Shown here: positions 5,170 to 48,931 of the stretch, one piece after another
How the letters are laid out: each line of letters begins with the position of its first letter
How positions within the stretch are numbered: the stretch's first letter is position 1
Notes under the pieces: model-generated
Told to the model about the DNA's origin: nothing
Databases searched by the model: none
What the model saw: only the letters and a program-made list of their open reading frames with translations
DNA from: Clostridia bacterium
GTDB lineage: Bacteria > Bacillota > Clostridia > Oscillospirales > UBA644
Assembly: GCA_017427285.1 (NCBI GenBank)
Contig: JAFRTE010000046.1
Span: 7,401-71,400 of the forward strand
DNA length: 64,000 nt
Direction of reading: 5' to 3'
Program-made: the position numbers and the translations under genes

Positions 5170-5362
5170 GATTATTCTCATTCTTCAGTTTCTTCTCCGT
5201 CGTCACCATAGCGGACCTTGAGCGGCTCGCAGGAGATTTATTCCGCCTAAACGCCCTGACGGGTGTCCTCCGAAAAGCGTATCAGCGATTCTTGAGTTTC
5301 CTCTGAATAAAACTGTCACTGCAGAAATGCTTTTATATTTCGGTATTTTTTCGCGCTTACTA

Positions 5363-5391
5363 TTGACAAACCGTTATGGATTATGTATAAT
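5363..5391 (+). promoter_or_regulatory. sigma-A type promoter of paralog P3
   Basis: TTGACA (5363-5368), 17-nt spacer, TATAAT (5386-5391). It overlaps the track ORF start at 5383, which is therefore rejected. Confidence 0.75.
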
Positions 5392-5421
5392 ATGGAAAAT
5401 TTATTCAAAAAGGAGCGAAAC

Positions 5422-6810
5422 ATGAAATATTTCAAGCTGACGGCTGTAACCCTGTTATTTGCGGTTCTTTTAATATCGTGCGGAGTTTCCTCCGAGATCG
5501 TTCCGGAATACGATGTAACGTCCGACACTACGGATTTTTACGGGACAACATTCAACTGGGGTTTCTCTATGCACCGCTATGCAAGCAGCACCGATAATGT
5601 TTTCGGATATAAGCCGGATACCAATTTTGCAGATATGGCTCTTGAAAGGCTGAAAGATGTCGAGAAAAGATTCAACTGCACTATTAATATCGACAATAAT
5701 TCAAGTTCATATGTAATCGGCGACAGGCTCAATGTTTCGCTGAAAACAGGCGTTCACCTGTATGATATCGCAACCTGTGACACAGGTATTCTGTCATCAA
5801 TTGTCAGAGCAGGCGGCTATCTCGCAGGTCTTTCAAATTTGCTTGATGTTAAGAATACCGCAAAATTCGGAAGACCTAACATGCTTCAGATGATGCTCTG
5901 GAAAGACGATCTTTATGGCGTTGTTCCCTGCGCATGGCCGCTGCTTGTTTCTTCAAGAATAGGACATGTTCTTGCGATCAATGAAACCCTGGTTGCCAGA
6001 CTGGGAGAGACCGACCCCAGAGAATATGTTGAAAATTCTACATGGACCTGGGATAAATTTGAAGAGGTCCTCGAGGCTTTCACATATAAAGAAGGTGAAA
6101 GAACAGTCTATGGACTGAGCAGCCATGATGCTTATTTCGCCATGAACATGTTCCTTTCCAACGGCGTAACTTTTTCGGAATACGTAGACGGAAAAGTCGT
6201 TTTCGGCGCATATACGGACGCGGGAAGAGAAGCACTTGAGCGCGCTGCGTCTATATACAATGTCACCTGCAAGCCCTTTATCTATCCCGACGCCAGCACC
6301 ACAGACCATTTCAGGGACGGCTCGTCGGTAATGTGCGGCTACTTTTTAGACGGAGTCATAAACACGCTCATGTATGAAATGGAAAACGCAGGCATAATTC
6401 CTTTCCCCCAGGGACCGAAGGCGACCCCCGGCGTATATCCCACATATTATGAGGAATTCACTTATGCTACCGTAATACCCGCCAACGCAATCGACACAAG
6501 CGCTTCCGCAGCAATCATAGACGCAATGTTTGAGCCGTTTAAAGGATTGGAAACCAGGGACGATATGATTGATTATTTAACATCTCAGGTGTTCTTTGAT
6601 CCCAGAGACTCGGCGGTATTTCTCGGAGCAGTCGAATATACCGAGTACGGATTTTTCTGGGAAGGCGGACGCAGCGGCATAGAGCAATGCATAAGAACAT
6701 TAAAACCCGTTTCCGAAGCCCTTGAAGGACTTGAAAATGTTTACGATAAACTTGTTGAGGAATATCTGGTTCCTCATTACAACGGAAGGATTGCTGTTTA
6801 CGGTGAATAA
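5422..6810 (+). CDS. SBP-like lipoprotein paralog P3 (same subfamily as P1)
   Basis: ATG at 5422 follows AAAAAGGAGCG. Signal peptide MKYFKLTAVTLLFAVLLISCG, then EIVPEY. Collinear with P1 along its whole length, with identical blocks such as LWKDDLYGVVP, TWTWDKFEEVL, AYFAMNMFLSNGV and TEYGFFWEGGR. Confidence 0.85.
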   Translation: MKYFKLTAVTLLFAVLLISCGVSSEIVPEYDVTSDTTDFYGTTFNWGFSMHRYASSTDNVFGYKPDTNFADMALERLKDVEKRFNCTINIDNNSSSYVIGDRLNVSLKTGVHLYDIATCDTGILSSIVRAGGYLAGLSNLLDVKNTAKFGRPNMLQMMLWKDDLYGVVPCAWPLLVSSRIGHVLAINETLVARLGETDPREYVENSTWTWDKFEEVLEAFTYKEGERTVYGLSSHDAYFAMNMFLSNGVTFSEYVDGKVVFGAYTDAGREALERAASIYNVTCKPFIYPDASTTDHFRDGSSVMCGYFLDGVINTLMYEMENAGIIPFPQGPKATPGVYPTYYEEFTYATVIPANAIDTSASAAIIDAMFEPFKGLETRDDMIDYLTSQVFFDPRDSAVFLGAVEYTEYGFFWEGGRSGIEQCIRTLKPVSEALEGLENVYDKLVEEYLVPHYNGRIAVYGE

Positions 6811-6893: not shown

Positions 6894-7493
6894 ATGGAAA
6901 TTTTAGCGTGGGTATTCGGAATAGCCAGCATAATAGCTAATTTTATACTTTATCAGCAGAAAGAACGAAAAAGACTTCTTATCTCAAAGATGATAGTTGA
7001 CACACTGTCGATAGTGCATTACAGCTGCCTCGGCGCCTGGAGCGGGGCAGCGATATGCCTTGTTGCTGTTTTCAGAACTTTCGTATTTATGCATGAGGAC
7101 AAAAAATGGGCAGGCGGAAAGAAGTGGCTGCTTGTTTTTCTTGCAATGAATATCATACTCGCTTTCTTTACATGGAAAAACATTTTCAGTATTTTTCCGC
7201 TCATCGCTACTGCCGGCGCGATTTTCAGCTTCTGGCAAAATAACACGAAGCTTACAAAAATACTTGTCTATCCGATATCGGGATGCATGATAACATATGA
7301 CATCCCCAGCGGGTCTTATACCGGACTTGTTAACGAGACGTTCGCCATCGTCTCTGCAACCATCAGCCTTATTTCGATGCATAAGAGCAGAAAGAACAGC
7401 GAGATCTCCGCGGAAAGCGGAAACGAGCAAACGGATGAAACAGAAACGTTAAATGAAAAACAGGTAACAGAGGACTCCGCCGGGAGTTTATGA
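6894..7493 (+). CDS. YgjV-like inner membrane protein
   Basis: Five or six hydrophobic helices and a sequence pattern reminiscent of the Imp-YgjV family. The start is ambiguous: TTG at 6876 is 2 nt after AAGGAG, ATG at 6894 is 20 nt after it. Confidence 0.5.
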   Translation: MEILAWVFGIASIIANFILYQQKERKRLLISKMIVDTLSIVHYSCLGAWSGAAICLVAVFRTFVFMHEDKKWAGGKKWLLVFLAMNIILAFFTWKNIFSIFPLIATAGAIFSFWQNNTKLTKILVYPISGCMITYDIPSGSYTGLVNETFAIVSATISLISMHKSRKNSEISAESGNEQTDETETLNEKQVTEDSAGSL

Positions 7494-42259: not shown

Positions 42260-42679
42260 TCATATCTTCGCTTCCGTTTCAGACCGTAAAAGATCGCTCA
42301 GCTTTTTGCCGTAAAAGAAATCGTGGATCATTTTATCGTATTCTGCCCACATAGGAAGCGTCTGACATTTTTCTTTTCTCGGACATTCGTTTTTGCTGTC
42401 CGCAAGGCATGCGACCGGGTAGAGCGGACCTTCGGTAATCTCGAGTATTTCGCCTACGTTATACTCTTCGGGTTTTCTGCAAAGCTTGTATCCTCCTCTC
42501 TTGCCGCTTGCGGCTTCGACAAGACCGCCTTCGACCATATCCTTTACAATGATCTCAAGATATTTTTTCGATATTTCCTGTCTTGCGGCAATATCTTTTA
42601 AAGGAATAAAACTGCCGTTTCCGTTTTCGGCAAGGTCGATCATCACGCGTATTGCGTATCTTCCTCTTGTGGAAATCAT
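42260..42679 (-). CDS. Rrf2 family transcriptional regulator (IscR/CymR-like, probable Fe-S ligands)
   Basis: MISTRGRYAIRVMIDLAE (wHTH). Cys cluster VACLADSKNECPRKEKCQ. Divergent from nifS-nifU. Confidence 0.9.
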   Translation of the reverse strand: MISTRGRYAIRVMIDLAENGNGSFIPLKDIAARQEISKKYLEIIVKDMVEGGLVEAASGKRGGYKLCRKPEEYNVGEILEITEGPLYPVACLADSKNECPRKEKCQTLPMWAEYDKMIHDFFYGKKLSDLLRSETEAKI

Positions 42680-42728: not shown

Positions 42729-42762
42729 GTCAATAGGTAAAAAAAATTTTTTACCTATTGAC
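42729..42762. promoter_or_regulatory. 34-bp perfect palindrome, candidate Rrf2 operator carrying both divergent -35 boxes
   Basis: GTCAATAGGTAAAAAA-AA-TTTTTTACCTATTGAC. The right arm provides TTGACA for nifS. The left arm provides TTGACT on the minus strand for the Rrf2 gene (18-nt spacer, TATAAT). Confidence 0.7.
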
Positions 42763-42786
42763 AATATAGGCGAATAGGTGTATAAT
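42758..42786 (+). promoter_or_regulatory. nifS-nifU promoter
   Basis: TTGACA (42758-42763), 17-nt spacer containing ATAGG..ATAGGT, TATAAT (42781-42786). Confidence 0.8.
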
Positions 42787-44016: not shown

Positions 44017-44400
44017 ATGGCTTTATACAGCGAAAAAGTAATGGATCATTTCCGCAATCCCCGCAACGTCGGCATTATAGAGGACGCAAACGGAATAGGC
44101 GAGGTAGGCAACGCAAAATGCGGCGATATCATGAAAATGTATCTTAAAATAGAAGACGGTATAGTCAAAGACGTAAAGTTTGAAACTTTCGGATGCGGCA
44201 GCGCGATAGCTTCAAGCTCGATGGCAACCGAAATGATAAAAGGCAAACCTGTAAGCGAAGTAAAACAGCTTACAAACAAAGCGGTCGCGGAAGCGCTCGA
44301 CGGACTTCCCGACTACAAAATGCACTGCAGCGTTCTTGCGGAAGAAGCGATCAAGCTGGCCCTTGAGGACTATCAGAAAAGAACAGGCGAAGAAATTTGA
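44017..44400 (+). CDS. nifU: Fe-S cluster assembly scaffold protein
   Basis: GNAKCGD, FGCGSAIASSS, HCSVLAEEA (the three conserved Cys of IscU/NifU-N). Confidence 0.95.
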   Translation: MALYSEKVMDHFRNPRNVGIIEDANGIGEVGNAKCGDIMKMYLKIEDGIVKDVKFETFGCGSAIASSSMATEMIKGKPVSEVKQLTNKAVAEALDGLPDYKMHCSVLAEEAIKLALEDYQKRTGEEI

Positions 44401-44411
44401 AATTTTTGTGA

Positions 44412-44445
44412 ACCTATTGACATAGTAGGTAAATGATGCTATAAT
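44412..44445 (+). promoter_or_regulatory. promoter of the sulfur amino-acid operon with a copy of the ACCTATTGAC half-site
   Basis: ACCTATTGAC (44412-44421) is identical to the right arm core of the 42729-42762 palindrome. TTGACA (44417-44422), 17-nt spacer containing TAGGT, TATAAT (44440-44445). Confidence 0.75.
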
Positions 44446-44476
44446 GTCCGCAATCAGAAAAAAGGAGGCGCAAAAG

Positions 44477-44602
44477 ATGATCGGCTATACGACTTTAAAC
44501 GGAAATATCTTCATGTGTTGTCGAATGCTATGCTCCCGGGATCCTTCTTCGGAAGGGGCGTTCGATTGCCTGCAACTGCGCCTCGATAATATACGATGTT
44601 GA
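44477..44602 (+). CDS. candidate regulatory leader peptide, Cys/Met-rich (41 codons)
   Basis: AGGAGG (44463-44468), 8 nt, then ATG. Peptide MIGYTTLNGNIFMCCRMLCSRDPSSEGAFDCLQLRLDNIRC has 5 Cys and 3 Met, with MCCRMLC clustered. It lies in the roughly 250-nt leader of metY-cysK-cysE. Whether it is coding or regulatory is unproven. Confidence 0.4.
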   Translation: MIGYTTLNGNIFMCCRMLCSRDPSSEGAFDCLQLRLDNIRC

Positions 44603-44704
44603 CTTGAAAATTCCTCATTGTATTCCGACTGCCCGGGAGCTTAAAATAAGTTGCCGGGCATTTACTGTATCAAAAATAAGAAAGAAAGCAAAAGGAGATT
44701 AAAA

Positions 44705-45985
44705 ATGAGTAATTATAGATTTGAAACTTTACAGCTTCATGTAGGTCAGGAAAATGCGGATCCCGCAACCGATGCGCGGGCTGTCCCCATATATCAGACG
44801 ACTTCGTATGTTTTTCATAACAGCAAACACGCCGCGGACCGTTTCGGACTTGCGGATTCGGGCAACATTTACGGCAGACTTACAAACTCCACTCAGGAAG
44901 TTCTCGAAAAGAGAGTTGCGGCGCTCGAAGGCGGAAGCGCGGCGCTTGCGCTTGCATCCGGCGCGGCAGCCATAACCTATACGATTGAAGCGCTTGCGGC
45001 AAACGGCGGACATATCGTAGCGCAGAAGACCATTTACGGCGGAAGCTACAACCTTCTTGCACATACTCTTCCGCTGTACGGCATAAAAACAACGTTTGTA
45101 AACATACACGATCTCAAAGAGGTCGAAGACGCGATAACAAAAGACACACGCGCGATTTTCCTTGAAACGCTCGGCAATCCCAACAGCGATATCCCCGATA
45201 TAGACAGCGTTTCTCAGATCGCGCATACACACGGACTTCCCGTAGTTATCGACAATACCTTCGGCACGCCGTATCTTATCAGACCGATCGAGCACGGCGC
45301 GGATATCGTCGTACATTCCGCAACAAAATTCATAGGAGGACACGGCACAACTCTCGGCGGGATAATCGTGGAATCGGGAAAATTCAACTGGAAAGCAAGC
45401 GGAAAATACTCCAATATCGCTGCTCCTAATCCGAGTTATCACGGAGTATCTTTTTACGACGCGGTAGGGCCCGCCGCATTTGTTACGTATATCCGCGCGA
45501 TACTTTTGCGCGATACGGGAGCGACGATCTCTCCGTTTAATGCTTTTCTGCTTCTTCAGGGCGTTGAAACTCTTTCTCTCCGTCTTGAACGTCATGCCGA
45601 AAACACGAAAAAAGTCGTTGAATTTCTGAAAAACCATCCTAAGGTTGAGAAAGTAAACCATCCTTCTCTTCCCGCTCATCCCGACCATGCGCTTTATGAA
45701 AGGTATTTCCCCAACGGAGGCGGTTCGATTTTCACTTTCGATATAAAGGGCGGCCGCGAAGAGGCGTGGAAGTTTATAGACAACCTTAAGATCTTCTCTC
45801 TTCTTGCGAATGTCGCAGACGTAAAAAGTCTTGTTATACATCCTGCGTCAACAACGCATTCACAGCTTTCAAAAGAAGAGCTTGACGAACAGAACATACA
45901 TGAAAATACGATCAGACTGTCAATAGGCACGGAACATATCGACGATATCATCGCCGATCTCGAAAACGGCTTCAACGCCATATGA
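44705..45985 (+). CDS. metY: O-acetylhomoserine sulfhydrylase (PLP-dependent Cys/Met metabolism family)
   Basis: ATG at 44705 follows [31 protein letters not shown] and [10 protein letters not shown] (PLP lysine) are typical MetY/CysD. Confidence 0.9.
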
Positions 45986-46007
45986 CCGTCAAACGGAGGT
46001 ATGAAAA

Positions 46008-46940
46008 ATGTCTAATATATATAAAGGAATAACCGAACTTATCGGCAAAACACCGCTTGTAGAAATAGCAAATATAGAAAATAAACTCGAACTCGGCGCA
46101 AAAATACTTGTAAAACTTGAATATTTCAACCCCGCAGGAAGCGTAAAGGATCGAATTGCAAAGGCGATGATAGAAGACGCCGAAAACAGAGGGCTTCTTA
46201 AGAGCGGCTCGGTTATTATCGAGCCAACTTCGGGAAACACCGGAATAGGTCTTGCCGCTATCGGAGCGTCGAAAGGATACAGGGTAATTCTTACTATGCC
46301 AGAAACAATGAGCGTTGAAAGAAGAAATATCCTTAAAGCTTACGGAGCAGAGGTAGTTTTAACCGAGGGCGCGAAAGGCATGAAAGGGGCAATACAGAAA
46401 GCGGAAGAGCTTGCAAAGGAAATTGAAAACAGCTTTATTCCCGGTCAGTTTGTAAATCCCGCAAATCCCGCAATTCACAAAGCGACGACCGGCCCCGAAA
46501 TCTGGAACGATACCGACGGAGCCGCAGACTTTTTCATCGCGGGAGTAGGCACGGGCGGCACATTGACCGGAGCGGGGGAGTATCTGAAAGAAAAGAATCC
46601 CGATATCCGTATAATCGCCGTTGAACCCGAAGATTCTCCCGTTCTTTCCGAAGGAAGATCCGGCGCGCATAAAATCCAGGGTATAGGCGCGGGTTTCGTC
46701 CCCGATGTCCTTAATACGAAAATCTACGATGAGATAATAAGAGTTGCCAATCAGGACGCCTTCGACACTTCTAAACTTCTCGCCAAAAACGAAGGGATAT
46801 CAGTCGGTATTTCGTCCGGCGCCGCACTTTTTGCGGCAATTTCAGTAGCAAAACGTCCCGAAAACAGAGGTAAAACCGTAGTTGTGCTTTTGCCGGACAG
46901 CGGAGACAGATATTATTCCACCGCGCTTTTTTCGGACTGA
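46008..46940 (+). CDS. cysK: cysteine synthase A (O-acetylserine sulfhydrylase)
   Basis: [16 protein letters not shown] (PLP lysine), [22 protein letters not shown]. Confidence 0.95.
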
Positions 46941-46979
46941 TTTCAAATTGACCTACTGCTTGTTTCGGGGGTGAAGACC

Positions 46980-47858
46980 ATGTATTCTGTCGGTAAAATT
47001 TTGCGTGAGCTTGACGGCATTACGGTAAAATCGGATCTGTCCGATGGTAATTCCGCCCGCGCTCTGCCCGATACAGAGAAGATATGCGGGATAATTAACG
47101 ATACTCTTTCCTTGTTATTCCCCGGGTATTTCGGAGCTGCCGACGGAGGTACGCGCGAAGCCGTCGCTGAAAGAGCAGTTTCCTGTCTGTCTGAACAGAT
47201 AGATGCGGTCTTTGATTCCGAAAAAAGATTATCCGGCAGGTGCGGCGTGGAAACAGCGTGGAAATTTCTTGAAAAGCTTCCGAAACTGAAAGAAATACTT
47301 CTTACGGATATTGAAGCGCTTTATAACGGAGACCCTGCGGCTAAAAACCGCGAGGAAGTGCTGATCTGCTATCCCGGTTTTTTCGCCGTTGCCGTATACA
47401 GGATCGCTCATGAACTGTTTTTAATGGGCGTTCCCGTGATCCCGAGGATAATGACCGAATACGCTCACGGCAAAACGGGGATAGATATCCATCCCGGAGC
47501 GGAAATAGGCGACCATTTTTTCATCGACCACGGCACGGGAATAGTTATTGGCGAAACGACCGTTATCGGCAGCAACGTCAAGCTATATCAGGGAGTAACT
47601 CTCGGAGCAAGAAGCTTTGAGCATGACAAAGACGGAAATCCCGTAAAAAACCTGAAAAGGCATCCCAATATTGGAAACAACGTTATTATTTACGCAAACG
47701 CAACCATACTCGGAGGCAACACTTTTATCGGGGATAACTGCATAATAGGCGCAAGCACCTGGATCGTTCAGTCCGTCCCAGAAAACAGCACCGTTCTGTA
47801 TTCGTCCAACACCGAAAAAATACTTCAGCTGTGGGGCGATAACGGTTCGGGTATTTAA
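46980..47858 (+). CDS. cysE: serine O-acetyltransferase (long form)
   Basis: Hexapeptide-repeat region DIHPGAEIGDHFFIDHGTGIVIGETTVIGSNVKLYQGVTLG. ATG at 46980 follows GGGGGTG. The alternative GTG is at 46971. Confidence 0.85.
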   Translation: MYSVGKILRELDGITVKSDLSDGNSARALPDTEKICGIINDTLSLLFPGYFGAADGGTREAVAERAVSCLSEQIDAVFDSEKRLSGRCGVETAWKFLEKLPKLKEILLTDIEALYNGDPAAKNREEVLICYPGFFAVAVYRIAHELFLMGVPVIPRIMTEYAHGKTGIDIHPGAEIGDHFFIDHGTGIVIGETTVIGSNVKLYQGVTLGARSFEHDKDGNPVKNLKRHPNIGNNVIIYANATILGGNTFIGDNCIIGASTWIVQSVPENSTVLYSSNTEKILQLWGDNGSGI

Positions 47859-47899
47859 ACGTAAATCAAATCAGTTTCCAAAACGGAAGGAGAAACAAA

Positions 47900-48931
47900 A
47901 TGACATCAAAAGAACGTATAGACGCCGTTTTGAACGGACGTCCCACTGACAGAACGCCTTTCTGTCTCGTTGACGGAGGCGCCTGGATAGCAAAAACAGA
48001 AAACATCTCTTACCGCACGCTTTACGGAATGCCGGACGGAGGAGCAGAACTTATCGCAAAATGGACCGACGATATCGAAACCGACATCGTCAGCGCTGTT
48101 TCCGGCGTTTTTACCGCCTGTCTCAACGCTTTCGGTTCACCCATACATATCGACGATATCGGAAGTCCCGTAAATGCGGGCCCCGCTCTTAAAGACCCTG
48201 AAAACGAAATCCCGCTTCTCGACAAAAGCACTATAAGAGAAAAGCTTCTCGCAAACGAATTTGTCCGCAATATGATAACACAGACAAAAAACGTTAAAAA
48301 GCTCGTCGGAGACAGAAAATATCTTCTCGGCGATATAGCCGCTCCGTTTACTATGGCCTCCGTGTTAGTCGGAACTCAGGATTTTATCATGCTTATGGCG
48401 GACGAACCCGAGCTTGTCGAACAGCTTATGGATTTTACAACGGAAGTAAGCGCGGAAATGTTCCGTCTTCTTTGCGAAAACGGATGCGATATCGCCATGC
48501 CCGCCGATCCCGTTGCCAGCGGAAATCTCATCAGTCAGACGATGTATGAAGAGTGGGCTCTTCCCGCGCTTGTAAACCTTAAAAACAAAGTTTCCGAATA
48601 TAAATATTTCATGGCCCATGTCTGCGGCGCGTCGGGCGCACGCGTTCAGTCTCTCAGAGATGCCGGAGTCCGCGCATTCTCCTGCGATTATCTTGTAGAT
48701 CTCGATAAGGCGCTTACCGATGCGGACGGAAAAATGGCTATAATGGGAAATCTTAACCCCGCAGGCGTCCTGCTTGCCGGTACACCCGAAGAAGTATATG
48801 CGGAAGCGTGCGAAAGAATAAAAACCGCAAACGGAAGGCCGTATATTCTTGCCCCCGGTTGCGATATGGGCTCTGCAACACCTTATGAAAACGTTAAAAT
48901 GTTCATAAAGGCGGTCAAAGATCTCGCATAA
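47900..48931 (+). CDS. uroporphyrinogen-decarboxylase-fold protein of the MtaA/CmuA thiol methyltransferase type
   Basis: URO-D family layout. It retains AHVCG (HxC) and APGCD, the positions I recall as Zn ligands in MtaA-type methylcobamide:thiol methyltransferases. Last gene of the metY-cysK-cysE operon. Confidence 0.65.
   Translation: MTSKERIDAVLNGRPTDRTPFCLVDGGAWIAKTENISYRTLYGMPDGGAELIAKWTDDIETDIVSAVSGVFTACLNAFGSPIHIDDIGSPVNAGPALKDPENEIPLLDKSTIREKLLANEFVRNMITQTKNVKKLVGDRKYLLGDIAAPFTMASVLVGTQDFIMLMADEPELVEQLMDFTTEVSAEMFRLLCENGCDIAMPADPVASGNLISQTMYEEWALPALVNLKNKVSEYKYFMAHVCGASGARVQSLRDAGVRAFSCDYLVDLDKALTDADGKMAIMGNLNPAGVLLAGTPEEVYAEACERIKTANGRPYILAPGCDMGSATPYENVKMFIKAVKDLA

Follow-up and report, generated by a model that had tools for sequence, protein, structure and literature searches.

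Within a 64,000-nucleotide stretch of DNA from a Clostridia bacterium (the window; positions 7,401 to 71,400 of contig JAFRTE010000046.1, assembly GCA_017427285.1), the sulfur amino-acid genes metY (O-acetylhomoserine/O-acetylserine sulfhydrylase; 44705-45985), cysK (46008-46940) and cysE (serine O-acetyltransferase; 46971-47858) follow one another behind a sigma-70-type promoter, TTGACA-17-TATAAT with an extended -10 TG (44417-44445), that matches the consensus at 12 of 12 positions. Promoter and metY are separated by a leader (44446-44704) which, like the promoter and the three genes, is read on the forward strand, as are all the leader features described below. Judged from sequence comparison and fold modelling, this leader is likely to be a ribosome-mediated (leader-peptide) transcription attenuator for sulfur amino acids. 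It has the hallmarks of one: an upstream open reading frame (uORF) with a Shine-Dalgarno (SD) sequence, clustered cognate codons, a terminator, a covarying antiterminator that excludes the terminator and, according to geometry and the fold modelling, a permissive placement of the codons. An earlier note, made from the letters of the window, had proposed that the speed of a ribosome over Cys and Met codons selects between alternative stems, and this proposal is now supported by a conserved reading frame, by compensatory changes and by modelled folds. What is new here is the family; the mechanism is the classical one, not a new one.

The uORF (44477-44602, with its stop codon at 44600-44602) is 41 codons long and would encode MIGYTTLNGNIFMCCRMLCSRDPSSEGAFDCLQLRLDNIRC; its ATG at 44477 stands 8 nucleotides (nt) behind an SD sequence, AAGGAGG (44462-44468). 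The putative sensor is the cluster ATG TGT TGT CGA ATG (M-C-C-R-M; 44513-44527), in which the two Cys codons are codons 14 and 15 of the uORF. Five Cys codons among 41 are more than expected at the Cys frequency of this genome, 1.8% (p≈7e-4), and the sensor is spelled with codons that are rare ones here, TGT making up 30% of the Cys codons and CGA 6.5% of the Arg codons of the genome. The leader peptide had no match in Pfam or NCBIfam, and a single-sequence database search with it gave nothing; a profile search among 5.8 billion predicted proteins returned only 14 clusters, unnamed or called 'hypothetical'.

Downstream of the cluster, the RNA can form two structures that compete for the same bases. 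The antiterminator would pair GCTCCCGGG (44532-44540) with its exact reverse complement CCCGGGAGC (44632-44640), a helix of 9 bp whose 3' strand overlaps the 5' arm of the intrinsic terminator (44630-44670). The terminator hairpin itself (44630-44660, -21 kcal/mol) is built in two tiers, TGCCCGG/CCGGGCA (44630-44636 with 44654-44660) and an inner stem (44638-44643 with 44647-44652), and is followed by a weak, U-poor tail (ATTTACTGTA; ATTTACTGT). A simple terminator scan missed it because of this weak U-tract, and it was characterised by folding instead. The SD of metY (44691-44698), unpaired in the predicted fold, follows the terminator at a distance of about 30 nt.

Further helices appear when the free RNA is folded to its minimum free energy. 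In helix P1, GAGGCGCA in the SD region (44465-44472) pairs with TGCGCCTC (44577-44584), a strand that has an alternative partner at 44557-44561, with which it would form hairpin P3. An anti-antiterminator strand, strand 1 (GTCGAATGCT; 44520-44529), which covers the last two bases of the second Cys codon together with the Arg, Met and Leu codons, forms a helix of 10 bp with strand 1' (GGCGTTCGAT; 44557-44566), and strand 1' switches between strand 1 and 44578-44582. Hairpin P4, ATACGATG/CATTGTAT (44591-44623), holds the last codons of the uORF and its stop; relatives have a variable hairpin at this position, as judged by eye in the alignment. Taken by itself, the window is suggestive and not compelling, and gives weak evidence for an attenuator: a perfect inverted repeat of 9 nt arises in 458 of 5000 shuffles of the leader (9%).

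All that the earlier note had read from these letters was found at the coordinates it gave, including the promoter, the 41-codon uORF with its near-ideal SD and Cys/Met cluster, and the mutual exclusion of the GCTCCCGGG/CCCGGGAGC pairing and the terminator hairpin. A further hairpin to which it had drawn attention, CCTTC-TTCG-GAAGG with a UUCG loop (44543-44556), is present but is peculiar to the window: in most relatives the segment at this position reads CAUnnAAUAUGGC (CATnTAnTATGGC in the family alignment) and lengthens the antiterminator, an extension which the hairpin replaces here.

Sulfur amino-acid genes in Firmicutes are described as being controlled by the S-box, by T-boxes and by CymR. 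The view that the leader contains neither a T-box nor an S-box, likewise put forward in the earlier note, agrees with an Rfam scan of the window, the leader and 40 related loci. At the gathering score there was no Rfam match in the whole 64-kb window, and at E<=10 the interval 44350-44800 gave nothing credible, just two chance eukaryotic matches (E>2); in the 40 relatives, no S-box, T-box or other element was found at metY, and their only hit was an azaaromatic riboswitch elsewhere in L069. Both the T-box (RF00230) and the S-adenosylmethionine (SAM) riboswitches, S-box/SAM-I and the other classes, were rejected as candidates on the basis of these covariance-model searches. In the searchable part of the literature, outside which most subscription journals fall, no Cys/Met leader peptide was found for Clostridia or Lachnospiraceae or upstream of metY.

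The weight of the argument lies with the relatives of this leader, which were assembled in two ways. A MetY-based scan with one genome per species yielded 80 loci (L001-L080; MetY identity 83-92%) from rumen and gut Lachnospiraceae, other Clostridia, one Anaerovibrio and several Treponema. About 27 of these have a leader of 260-470 nt with the block ATG-TGT-TGT-CGA-ATG-N5-CTCCCGGGCA, a few have variant Cys-rich uORFs, and about 12 have the same promoter followed by a leader of 60-130 nt without the attenuator element; the promoter is conserved as TTGACATAGTAGGT in about 45 related loci. A metagenome scan with the pattern TGTCGAATGN5CTCCCGGG added 120 further loci, seven of them chance high-GC matches, and after removal of duplicates 130 distinct leaders from rumen and gut Bacillota remained. 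Only the MetY-selected leaders, about 33 in number, can show whether bases within the pattern are conserved; the features outside it, from the SD, start codon and frame of the uORF to the 3' strand of the antiterminator, the terminator and the downstream genes, are free of this bias. The closest relative of the window is L004, a Ruminococcaceae metagenome-assembled genome (MAG), whose uORF is nearly equal in length and in which NNFMCCRMLCSR and RLD are conserved. Two cultured rumen isolates, Lachnospiraceae bacterium YSD2013 (L025) and Lachnospiraceae bacterium AC2029 (L060), carry the canonical attenuator upstream of metY.

Across this family the reading frame around the sensor cluster is maintained. 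An in-frame upstream start with an SD is present in 139 of 146 motif instances, the other seven being the chance high-GC matches. If the start is taken as the first ATG with GGAG or GAGG ahead of it, 111 of 120 leaders have it in register with CGA, and the two remaining frames account for 1 and 8 (binomial p≈3e-42). Between -45 and +33 around the motif, this frame is open in 125 of 130 leaders, compared with 38 and 34 for its two alternatives. The N-terminal segment varies in sequence and in length (6-17 codons) without the frame ever being broken, and insertions and deletions in the cluster comprise whole codons, as in MCCCRM, MCCWRM and MCCYRM. The conserved core of the peptide is M-(M)-C-C-R-M. 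Counted from CGA, codon -1 is Cys in 96% of leaders (the scan pattern fixes this TGT; in the MetY-selected set the figure is about 27 of 33) and codon -2 in 80%; Met is found at codon -3 in 55% and at -4 in 38%, and Cys is nearly absent from positions -12 to -5, within the variable N-terminus. These patterns argue that the uORF is under selection for translation.

The RNA structures are conserved alongside the frame. A 10-bp antiterminator helix, CUCCCGGGCA/UGCCCGGGAG, whose strands lie about 100 nt from each other, is found in 127 of 130 leaders, and its 3' strand lies outside the search pattern; RNAalifold independently chose the same long-range helix as the consensus of an alignment of 119 sequences. 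The antiterminator core is 98.8% paired, its 5-bp extension AUGGC/GCCAU is 87.8% paired, every one of the five pairs showing compensatory changes, and hairpin P3 (GGGGCG/CGCCUC) is 75% paired, again with compensatory changes. All five summary measures of pairing exceed those of 500 of 500 shuffles and of every slid control. For the antiterminator, the MetY-selected leader L028 has GCUCUCAGACA/UGUCUGGGAGU, in which two G-C pairs have become A-U by double changes, and L037 has one such G-C to A-U double change. A terminator that shares the 3' strand of the antiterminator and ends in a T-rich tail is present in 125 of 127 leaders, with a median of -16 kcal/mol and mostly 5-7 T in 8 bases. Comparison of orthologous leaders, by which the earlier note had thought its proposal could be judged, thus finds the uORF frame, the Cys/Met cluster and the stems at 44532, 44632 and 44654 conserved, with compensatory changes. 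P1, between the SD-start region of the uORF and its 3' half, is sequence-specific (mean run 7.55 versus 6.72±0.14 with permuted partners; examples are GAGGCGTGAA/TTCACGCCTT and AGGCGTAAACAAT/ATTGTTTACGCCT), and helix 1:1' is 67% paired across the family, with the best partner at the location of 1' in 60 of 127 leaders.

A further observation on the family concerns the bases 3' of the terminator, where a CCGG(G) segment occurs within 26 nt after the U-tract in 35 of 114 leaders, as against 6 of 114 for a control segment (for example in L013, L020, L042 and L044). It could pair with the 3' arm of the terminator in read-through transcripts; the window does not have it.

Such an elaborate RNA might be read differently, as a three-way junction, formed by the antiterminator stem around P3 and P4, that binds a ligand or a protein in the manner of a riboswitch and to which the open reading frame is incidental or auxiliary. 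The outer helix with its asymmetric internal loop and the two inner hairpins with their covariation have the appearance of such an element, the free-RNA fold of the leader is more stable than shuffled sequences (z = -2.3), and the uORF SD is sequestered by a covarying long-range helix. A riboswitch-like junction would leave little reason for a frame that is kept across an N-terminus of variable length at the significance given above, or for a Cys cluster that gains and loses whole codons. Moreover, a minimal member of the family, L104, has only a 22-nt loop between its antiterminator strands and no junction at all, the inner hairpins vary freely in sequence and length throughout the family, and Rfam has no match. 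We regard this explanation as very unlikely.

If the leader is an attenuator read by the ribosome, the position of the Cys codons relative to the antiterminator should matter, and the geometry is consistent with this. Counted from the first base of the second Cys codon, the 5' strand of the antiterminator starts 13 nt downstream; toeprints and footprints generally place the 3' edge of a ribosome at about 12 nt from the first base in the A site, the value that was assumed here. The strand would lie just outside the footprint of a ribosome awaiting Cys-tRNA, so that starvation would be expected to give read-through, the direction that makes biological sense. Partition-function folding of 117 leaders gave a median probability of 0.07 for the antiterminator and 0.67 for the terminator in the free RNA; with the second Cys codon in the A site of a ribosome these values became 0.77 and 0.12, and with a ribosome over the 5' strand of the antiterminator 0.00 and 0.85. 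When the A site was moved along 72 leaders, the mean probability of the antiterminator stayed at 0.5-0.6 up to the last Cys codon (0.53 at -3), was 0.26 with CGA in the A site and 0.04 at +3, and was 0 through +33 nt. In the model, the Cys codons are the last stall positions that still permit antitermination. The stop codon of the uORF lies a median of 51 nt past the 5' strand of the antiterminator and 28 nt before the 3' strand, and the uORF would have to extend for at least a dozen codons for a moving ribosome to keep the antiterminator strand covered.

The sequence of events proposed for the window would be as follows. Transcription would start from the promoter at 44417-44445 and a ribosome would load at the SD and ATG (44462-44479). 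The leader RNA could then form either the terminator (44630-44660) or the long-range antiterminator (44532-44540 with 44632-44640), which consumes the 5' arm of the terminator. With Cys or Met scarce, the ribosome would pause at M-C-C (44513-44521) with its footprint ending about one base before the 5' strand of the antiterminator; since it would also cover the SD region and strand 1 (44520-44529), neither P1 nor helix 1:1', which otherwise help to lock the terminator state, could form. The antiterminator would then form and RNA polymerase would read through into metY-cysK-cysE. With Cys and Met plentiful, the ribosome would advance over the antiterminator strand, the uORF running 25 codons beyond, the terminator would form and transcription would stop. 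Three elements of this scheme are inferred: tRNA charging as the signal, the direction in which the leader responds, and the relative timing of ribosome and polymerase.

Several observations weigh against this interpretation. The window itself is not an exemplary member of the family: its U-tract is poor (TTTACTGT), and its antiterminator, at 9 bp and without the extension, is shorter than in most relatives. In the folding model, which is an equilibrium model, the probability of the window antiterminator is ≈0 in every state. The free RNA of the window prefers the terminator state, made up of P1, helix 1:1' and the terminator, by 12.9 kcal/mol, and under the mask of a stalled ribosome this state is still the more stable by 2.8 kcal/mol. 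A thermodynamic switch is therefore not claimed for the window, as equilibrium folding does not change over to the antiterminator on stalling, and the argument for this particular leader rests on the order of co-transcriptional folding: in a transcript that ends at 44642, before the 3' arm of the terminator, the antiterminator is the minimum-free-energy structure. For the family at large, the model predicts antitermination for a ribosome anywhere from the start codon to the Cys codons, and what distinguishes the latter is only that they come last among the permissive positions; with a ribosome at the stop codon the outcome is ambiguous (mean antiterminator probability ~0.3-0.5). The scan pattern, in turn, fixes 17 bases (TGTCGAATG and CTCCCGGG) in the 120 loci that it retrieved. 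Transcription and translation have been reported to be uncoupled in Bacillus subtilis, and if this holds in these Clostridia, the timing that attenuation demands would be harder to achieve. Lastly, not one nucleotide of the CGA-AUG pair (44522-44527 in the window) varies among the canonical leaders of the MetY-selected set, and the counting of hungry codons alone leaves this invariance unexplained.

Helix 1:1', of which CGA-AUG forms a part, was considered as the reason for the invariance and rejected as the full one, since roughly half of the family lacks the partner strand. A slow-codon or arrest function for CGA-AUG is possible. In its strong form, this idea would make the invariant Cys-Arg(CGA)-Met a programmed arrest module, at which the nascent peptide or the codon pair stalls the ribosome in response to SAM, cysteine or O-acetylserine, the same switch serving as the read-out. 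Parallels exist in TnaC, which responds to tryptophan, and in the plant CGS1 leader, which responds to SAM. Besides the invariance itself and the frequent lack of a pairing partner, three leaders upstream of metY that have no recognisable terminator or antiterminator (L033, L070 and L076) nevertheless keep CGA-AUG beside Cys codons. The conservation is, on the other hand, at the level of the codon, always CGA and never a synonymous Arg codon, which points to RNA or decoding rather than to the peptide; the peptide upstream of the cluster is not conserved, unlike that of known arrest peptides; the Arg is replaced by Val or Leu in uORFs of the type found in Treponema; and the number of Met codons follows the class of the downstream gene, as would be expected of codon sensing. 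A programmed arrest in place of codon sensing is, on balance, unlikely.

The three leaders just mentioned have variant uORFs that deserve description. That of L033 ends in ...YCRM directly before the stop codon, that of L070 has CGA-AUG twice (NRMCCC...CRMCCC), and that of L076 ends in MCYRMCS before the stop; in L033 the sequence downstream is rich in C and poor in G, a possible sign of a Rho-dependent or translational read-out. The Treponema loci (L002, L022, L061, L062 and L063), whose MetY is horizontally related, have a different conserved uORF about 140-260 nt upstream of metY, M(K/A)xYFEKLVRENFRNGxM(C/R)xCC..., with its Cys codons C-terminal; it shows many synonymous differences between species, and therefore selection at the protein level, and in L062 its stop codon abuts a hairpin with a U-run. 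It may be an independent Cys-sensing leader with a conserved peptide. A broader conjecture, to which we give little credence, would unite these forms: UGU-CGA-AUG would be a dedicated arrest module, sensitive to sulfur status or to a metabolite, that is reused by different read-outs, in most cases the terminator, possibly Rho or translation in L033, L070 and L076, and perhaps the Treponema-type uORF, with the long uORF and the 100-nt loop being adaptations to a Firmicutes polymerase that outruns the ribosome.

The genes behind the leaders bear on what is sensed. A downstream gene could be called for 120 leaders; it is MetY in 75, usually with CysK and CysE, and CysK directly in one. Among the rest are cystine-type ABC transporters and other genes with putative transport or sulfur-related roles; representatives are NlpA/MetQ lipoproteins, SBP_bac_3 binding proteins (some of them fused to NlpA), an amino-acid ABC permease, NMT1-like binding proteins, an ECF S component, a GST-like protein and two proteins without a Pfam match. 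Counted over the six codons that precede CGA, Met codons number 2.0 in leaders of NlpA/MetQ genes as against 1.22 in leaders of MetY (Mann-Whitney p≈9e-5) and 0.33 in leaders of ABC permeases, a comparison that ignores phylogenetic relatedness and is to that extent a further weakness of the case. The Met-codon number per gene class fits codon sensing that is tuned to the cargo.

The same survey bears on the notion that the uORF matters for its product, as a functional Cys-rich small protein or a precursor peptide of the RiPP (ribosomally synthesised and post-translationally modified peptide) or SCIFF type, the hairpins being ordinary mRNA structure or a leaky terminator. A product of 30-45 residues with 3-7 Cys would suit this, as would a second Cys-enriched zone near the C-terminus, which often ends in RC before the stop, and gene callers have indeed predicted a protein in the 14 database clusters mentioned above. 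The genes immediately downstream are, to the contrary, for sulfur amino acids and transport, with no maturase among these immediate neighbours (the wider neighbourhood was not searched); Pfam and NCBIfam have no match, the N-terminus and the C-terminal length are unconstrained, and the conserved C-terminal positions coincide with paired RNA, RL lying on the P1/P3 strand GCGCCUC. That the leader exists for the sake of such a product is extremely improbable.

Control at initiation has also to be considered. An operator-like inverted repeat, ACCTA-N9-TAGGT (44412-44430), overlaps the -35 box of the metY promoter and recurs at the nifS/iscS (nifS-nifU) promoter (42754-42770), where 0.05 matches would be expected by chance; a mirrored copy (42729-42741) faces the divergent gene of an Rrf2-family regulator (42260-42679, reverse strand). 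This regulator gene, NifS and NifU lie upstream of the leader. The Rrf2 protein scores 114.5 bits against the superfamily model and falls under the equivalog cut-offs of IscR and CymR. The repeat is probably the operator of this neighbouring CymR/IscR-like regulator, and if real it would probably add a second layer of control, at initiation, that is additional and not alternative to attenuation. On this point the earlier note, which had named CymR control among the described routes from which the leader would depart, needs correction, as an Rrf2-type operator-like repeat does overlap the -35 box.

It could be argued that this operator does all of the regulation and that the leader is a constitutive partial terminator or a stability element. 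The box is conserved at both the metY and the nifS promoters, two places per locus, in many relatives among L001-L080, and the dozen or so relatives with the same promoter and a short leader do without an attenuator. Such a scheme would leave the conserved frame of the uORF, the Cys/Met cluster and the covarying antiterminator unexplained, and the attenuator is also found behind promoters without the box, as in L093, L094, L104 and L184. The chance that the operator accounts for everything seems remote, and ribosome-mediated attenuation remains the preferred account of the leader.

Among known systems, the genes in question (metY, cysK, cysE and the Met/Cys transporters) are also the targets of the S-box and other SAM riboswitches, of Cys and Met T-boxes and of CymR; the RNA-based ones, S-box, SAM riboswitches and T-boxes, use premature termination in the leader as their output, as is proposed here. 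Unlike them, the present leader has no aptamer or tRNA-binding architecture, and the proposed sensor is the translating ribosome. In this it resembles the classical attenuators of E. coli (trp, his, leu, thr, ilv), with which it shares a short uORF with an SD, clustered codons for the end products of the pathway, a terminator opposed by an antiterminator that excludes it, a segment that ties up the antiterminator in the absence of a stalled ribosome, and a pairing able to shut the leader's own ribosome-binding site. It departs from them in that its sensor mixes Cys and Met codons in a short run of 4-6, its antiterminator strands, some 100 nt apart, have two hairpins and the stop of the uORF between them, and its uORF does not end next to the sensor but runs about 20-30 codons past it and has the invariant CGA-AUG; there is no sequence similarity to the leader families of Rfam. 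Amino-acid leader peptides are regarded as rare in Firmicutes (PMC2965389), where examples are the Lactococcus leu-phe leader, the predicted his leader of bacilli (PMC2965389) and the Listeria ilv leader (PMC5864092).

Cysteine-sensing uORFs have been proposed in other phyla. According to a preprint, mycobacteria have leaderless polycysteine small open reading frames (the 'Cys ribulon') at which stalled ribosomes unmask a downstream ribosome-binding site, a translational form of control (bioRxiv 10.1101/834739); as described there, Cys codons in a short uORF sense cysteine by stalling, and several sulfur operons form a ribosome-directed regulon, which is also what is proposed for the present family. 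As described, the mycobacterial frames differ from the present ones, which have a strong SD, a terminator/antiterminator read-out and Met codons in the cluster and belong to a different phylum. Actinobacterial cys leader peptides were also predicted, in a 2005 paper that found no terminators there (PMC1262725). The uORFC-8-2 motif upstream of cysS in Rhodobacterales has likewise been predicted to be a ribosome-mediated attenuator; its peptide has a tandem pair of Cys codons, in most cases at positions 14 and 15, and an intrinsic terminator comes after it (PMC8632094). It shares the codon positions 14 and 15 with the window by coincidence. It belongs to Alphaproteobacteria, precedes only cysS, has two simple stems, uses UGC predominantly where UGU is used here, lacks Met codons and is unrelated in sequence (PMC8632094).

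An attenuator that reads the supply of Cys and Met through the ribosome would add a further route of control beside S-box, T-box and CymR. Its presence in at least ~130 distinct leaders of rumen and human-gut Clostridia, before operons for both biosynthesis and uptake, would amount to a ribosome-directed regulon. It would also account for the long leader, so far without annotation, that precedes metY in many Lachnospiraceae and related genomes, and gives a signature by which that leader can be recognised in annotation. Finally, the family offers a natural test of ribosome-mediated attenuation in bacteria that are thought to be loosely coupled, and the cultured carriers make this question tractable.

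Two minor observations concern the neighbourhoods of metY. In the window, the operon as delimited by Pfam and NCBIfam assignments (44705-48931, intergenic gaps of 22-41 nt) ends with a gene of the URO-D family (47900-48931), which begins 41 nt after the serine O-acetyltransferase gene and appears to be a fourth gene under the control of the attenuator; its product is uroporphyrinogen-decarboxylase- or methyltransferase-like, and a role in sulfur amino-acid metabolism is not obvious. In the Faecalibacterium MAG L069, an azaaromatic (yjdF) riboswitch, unrelated to the leaders described here, lies on the reverse strand at 5297-5429, about 1 kb past the end of metY.

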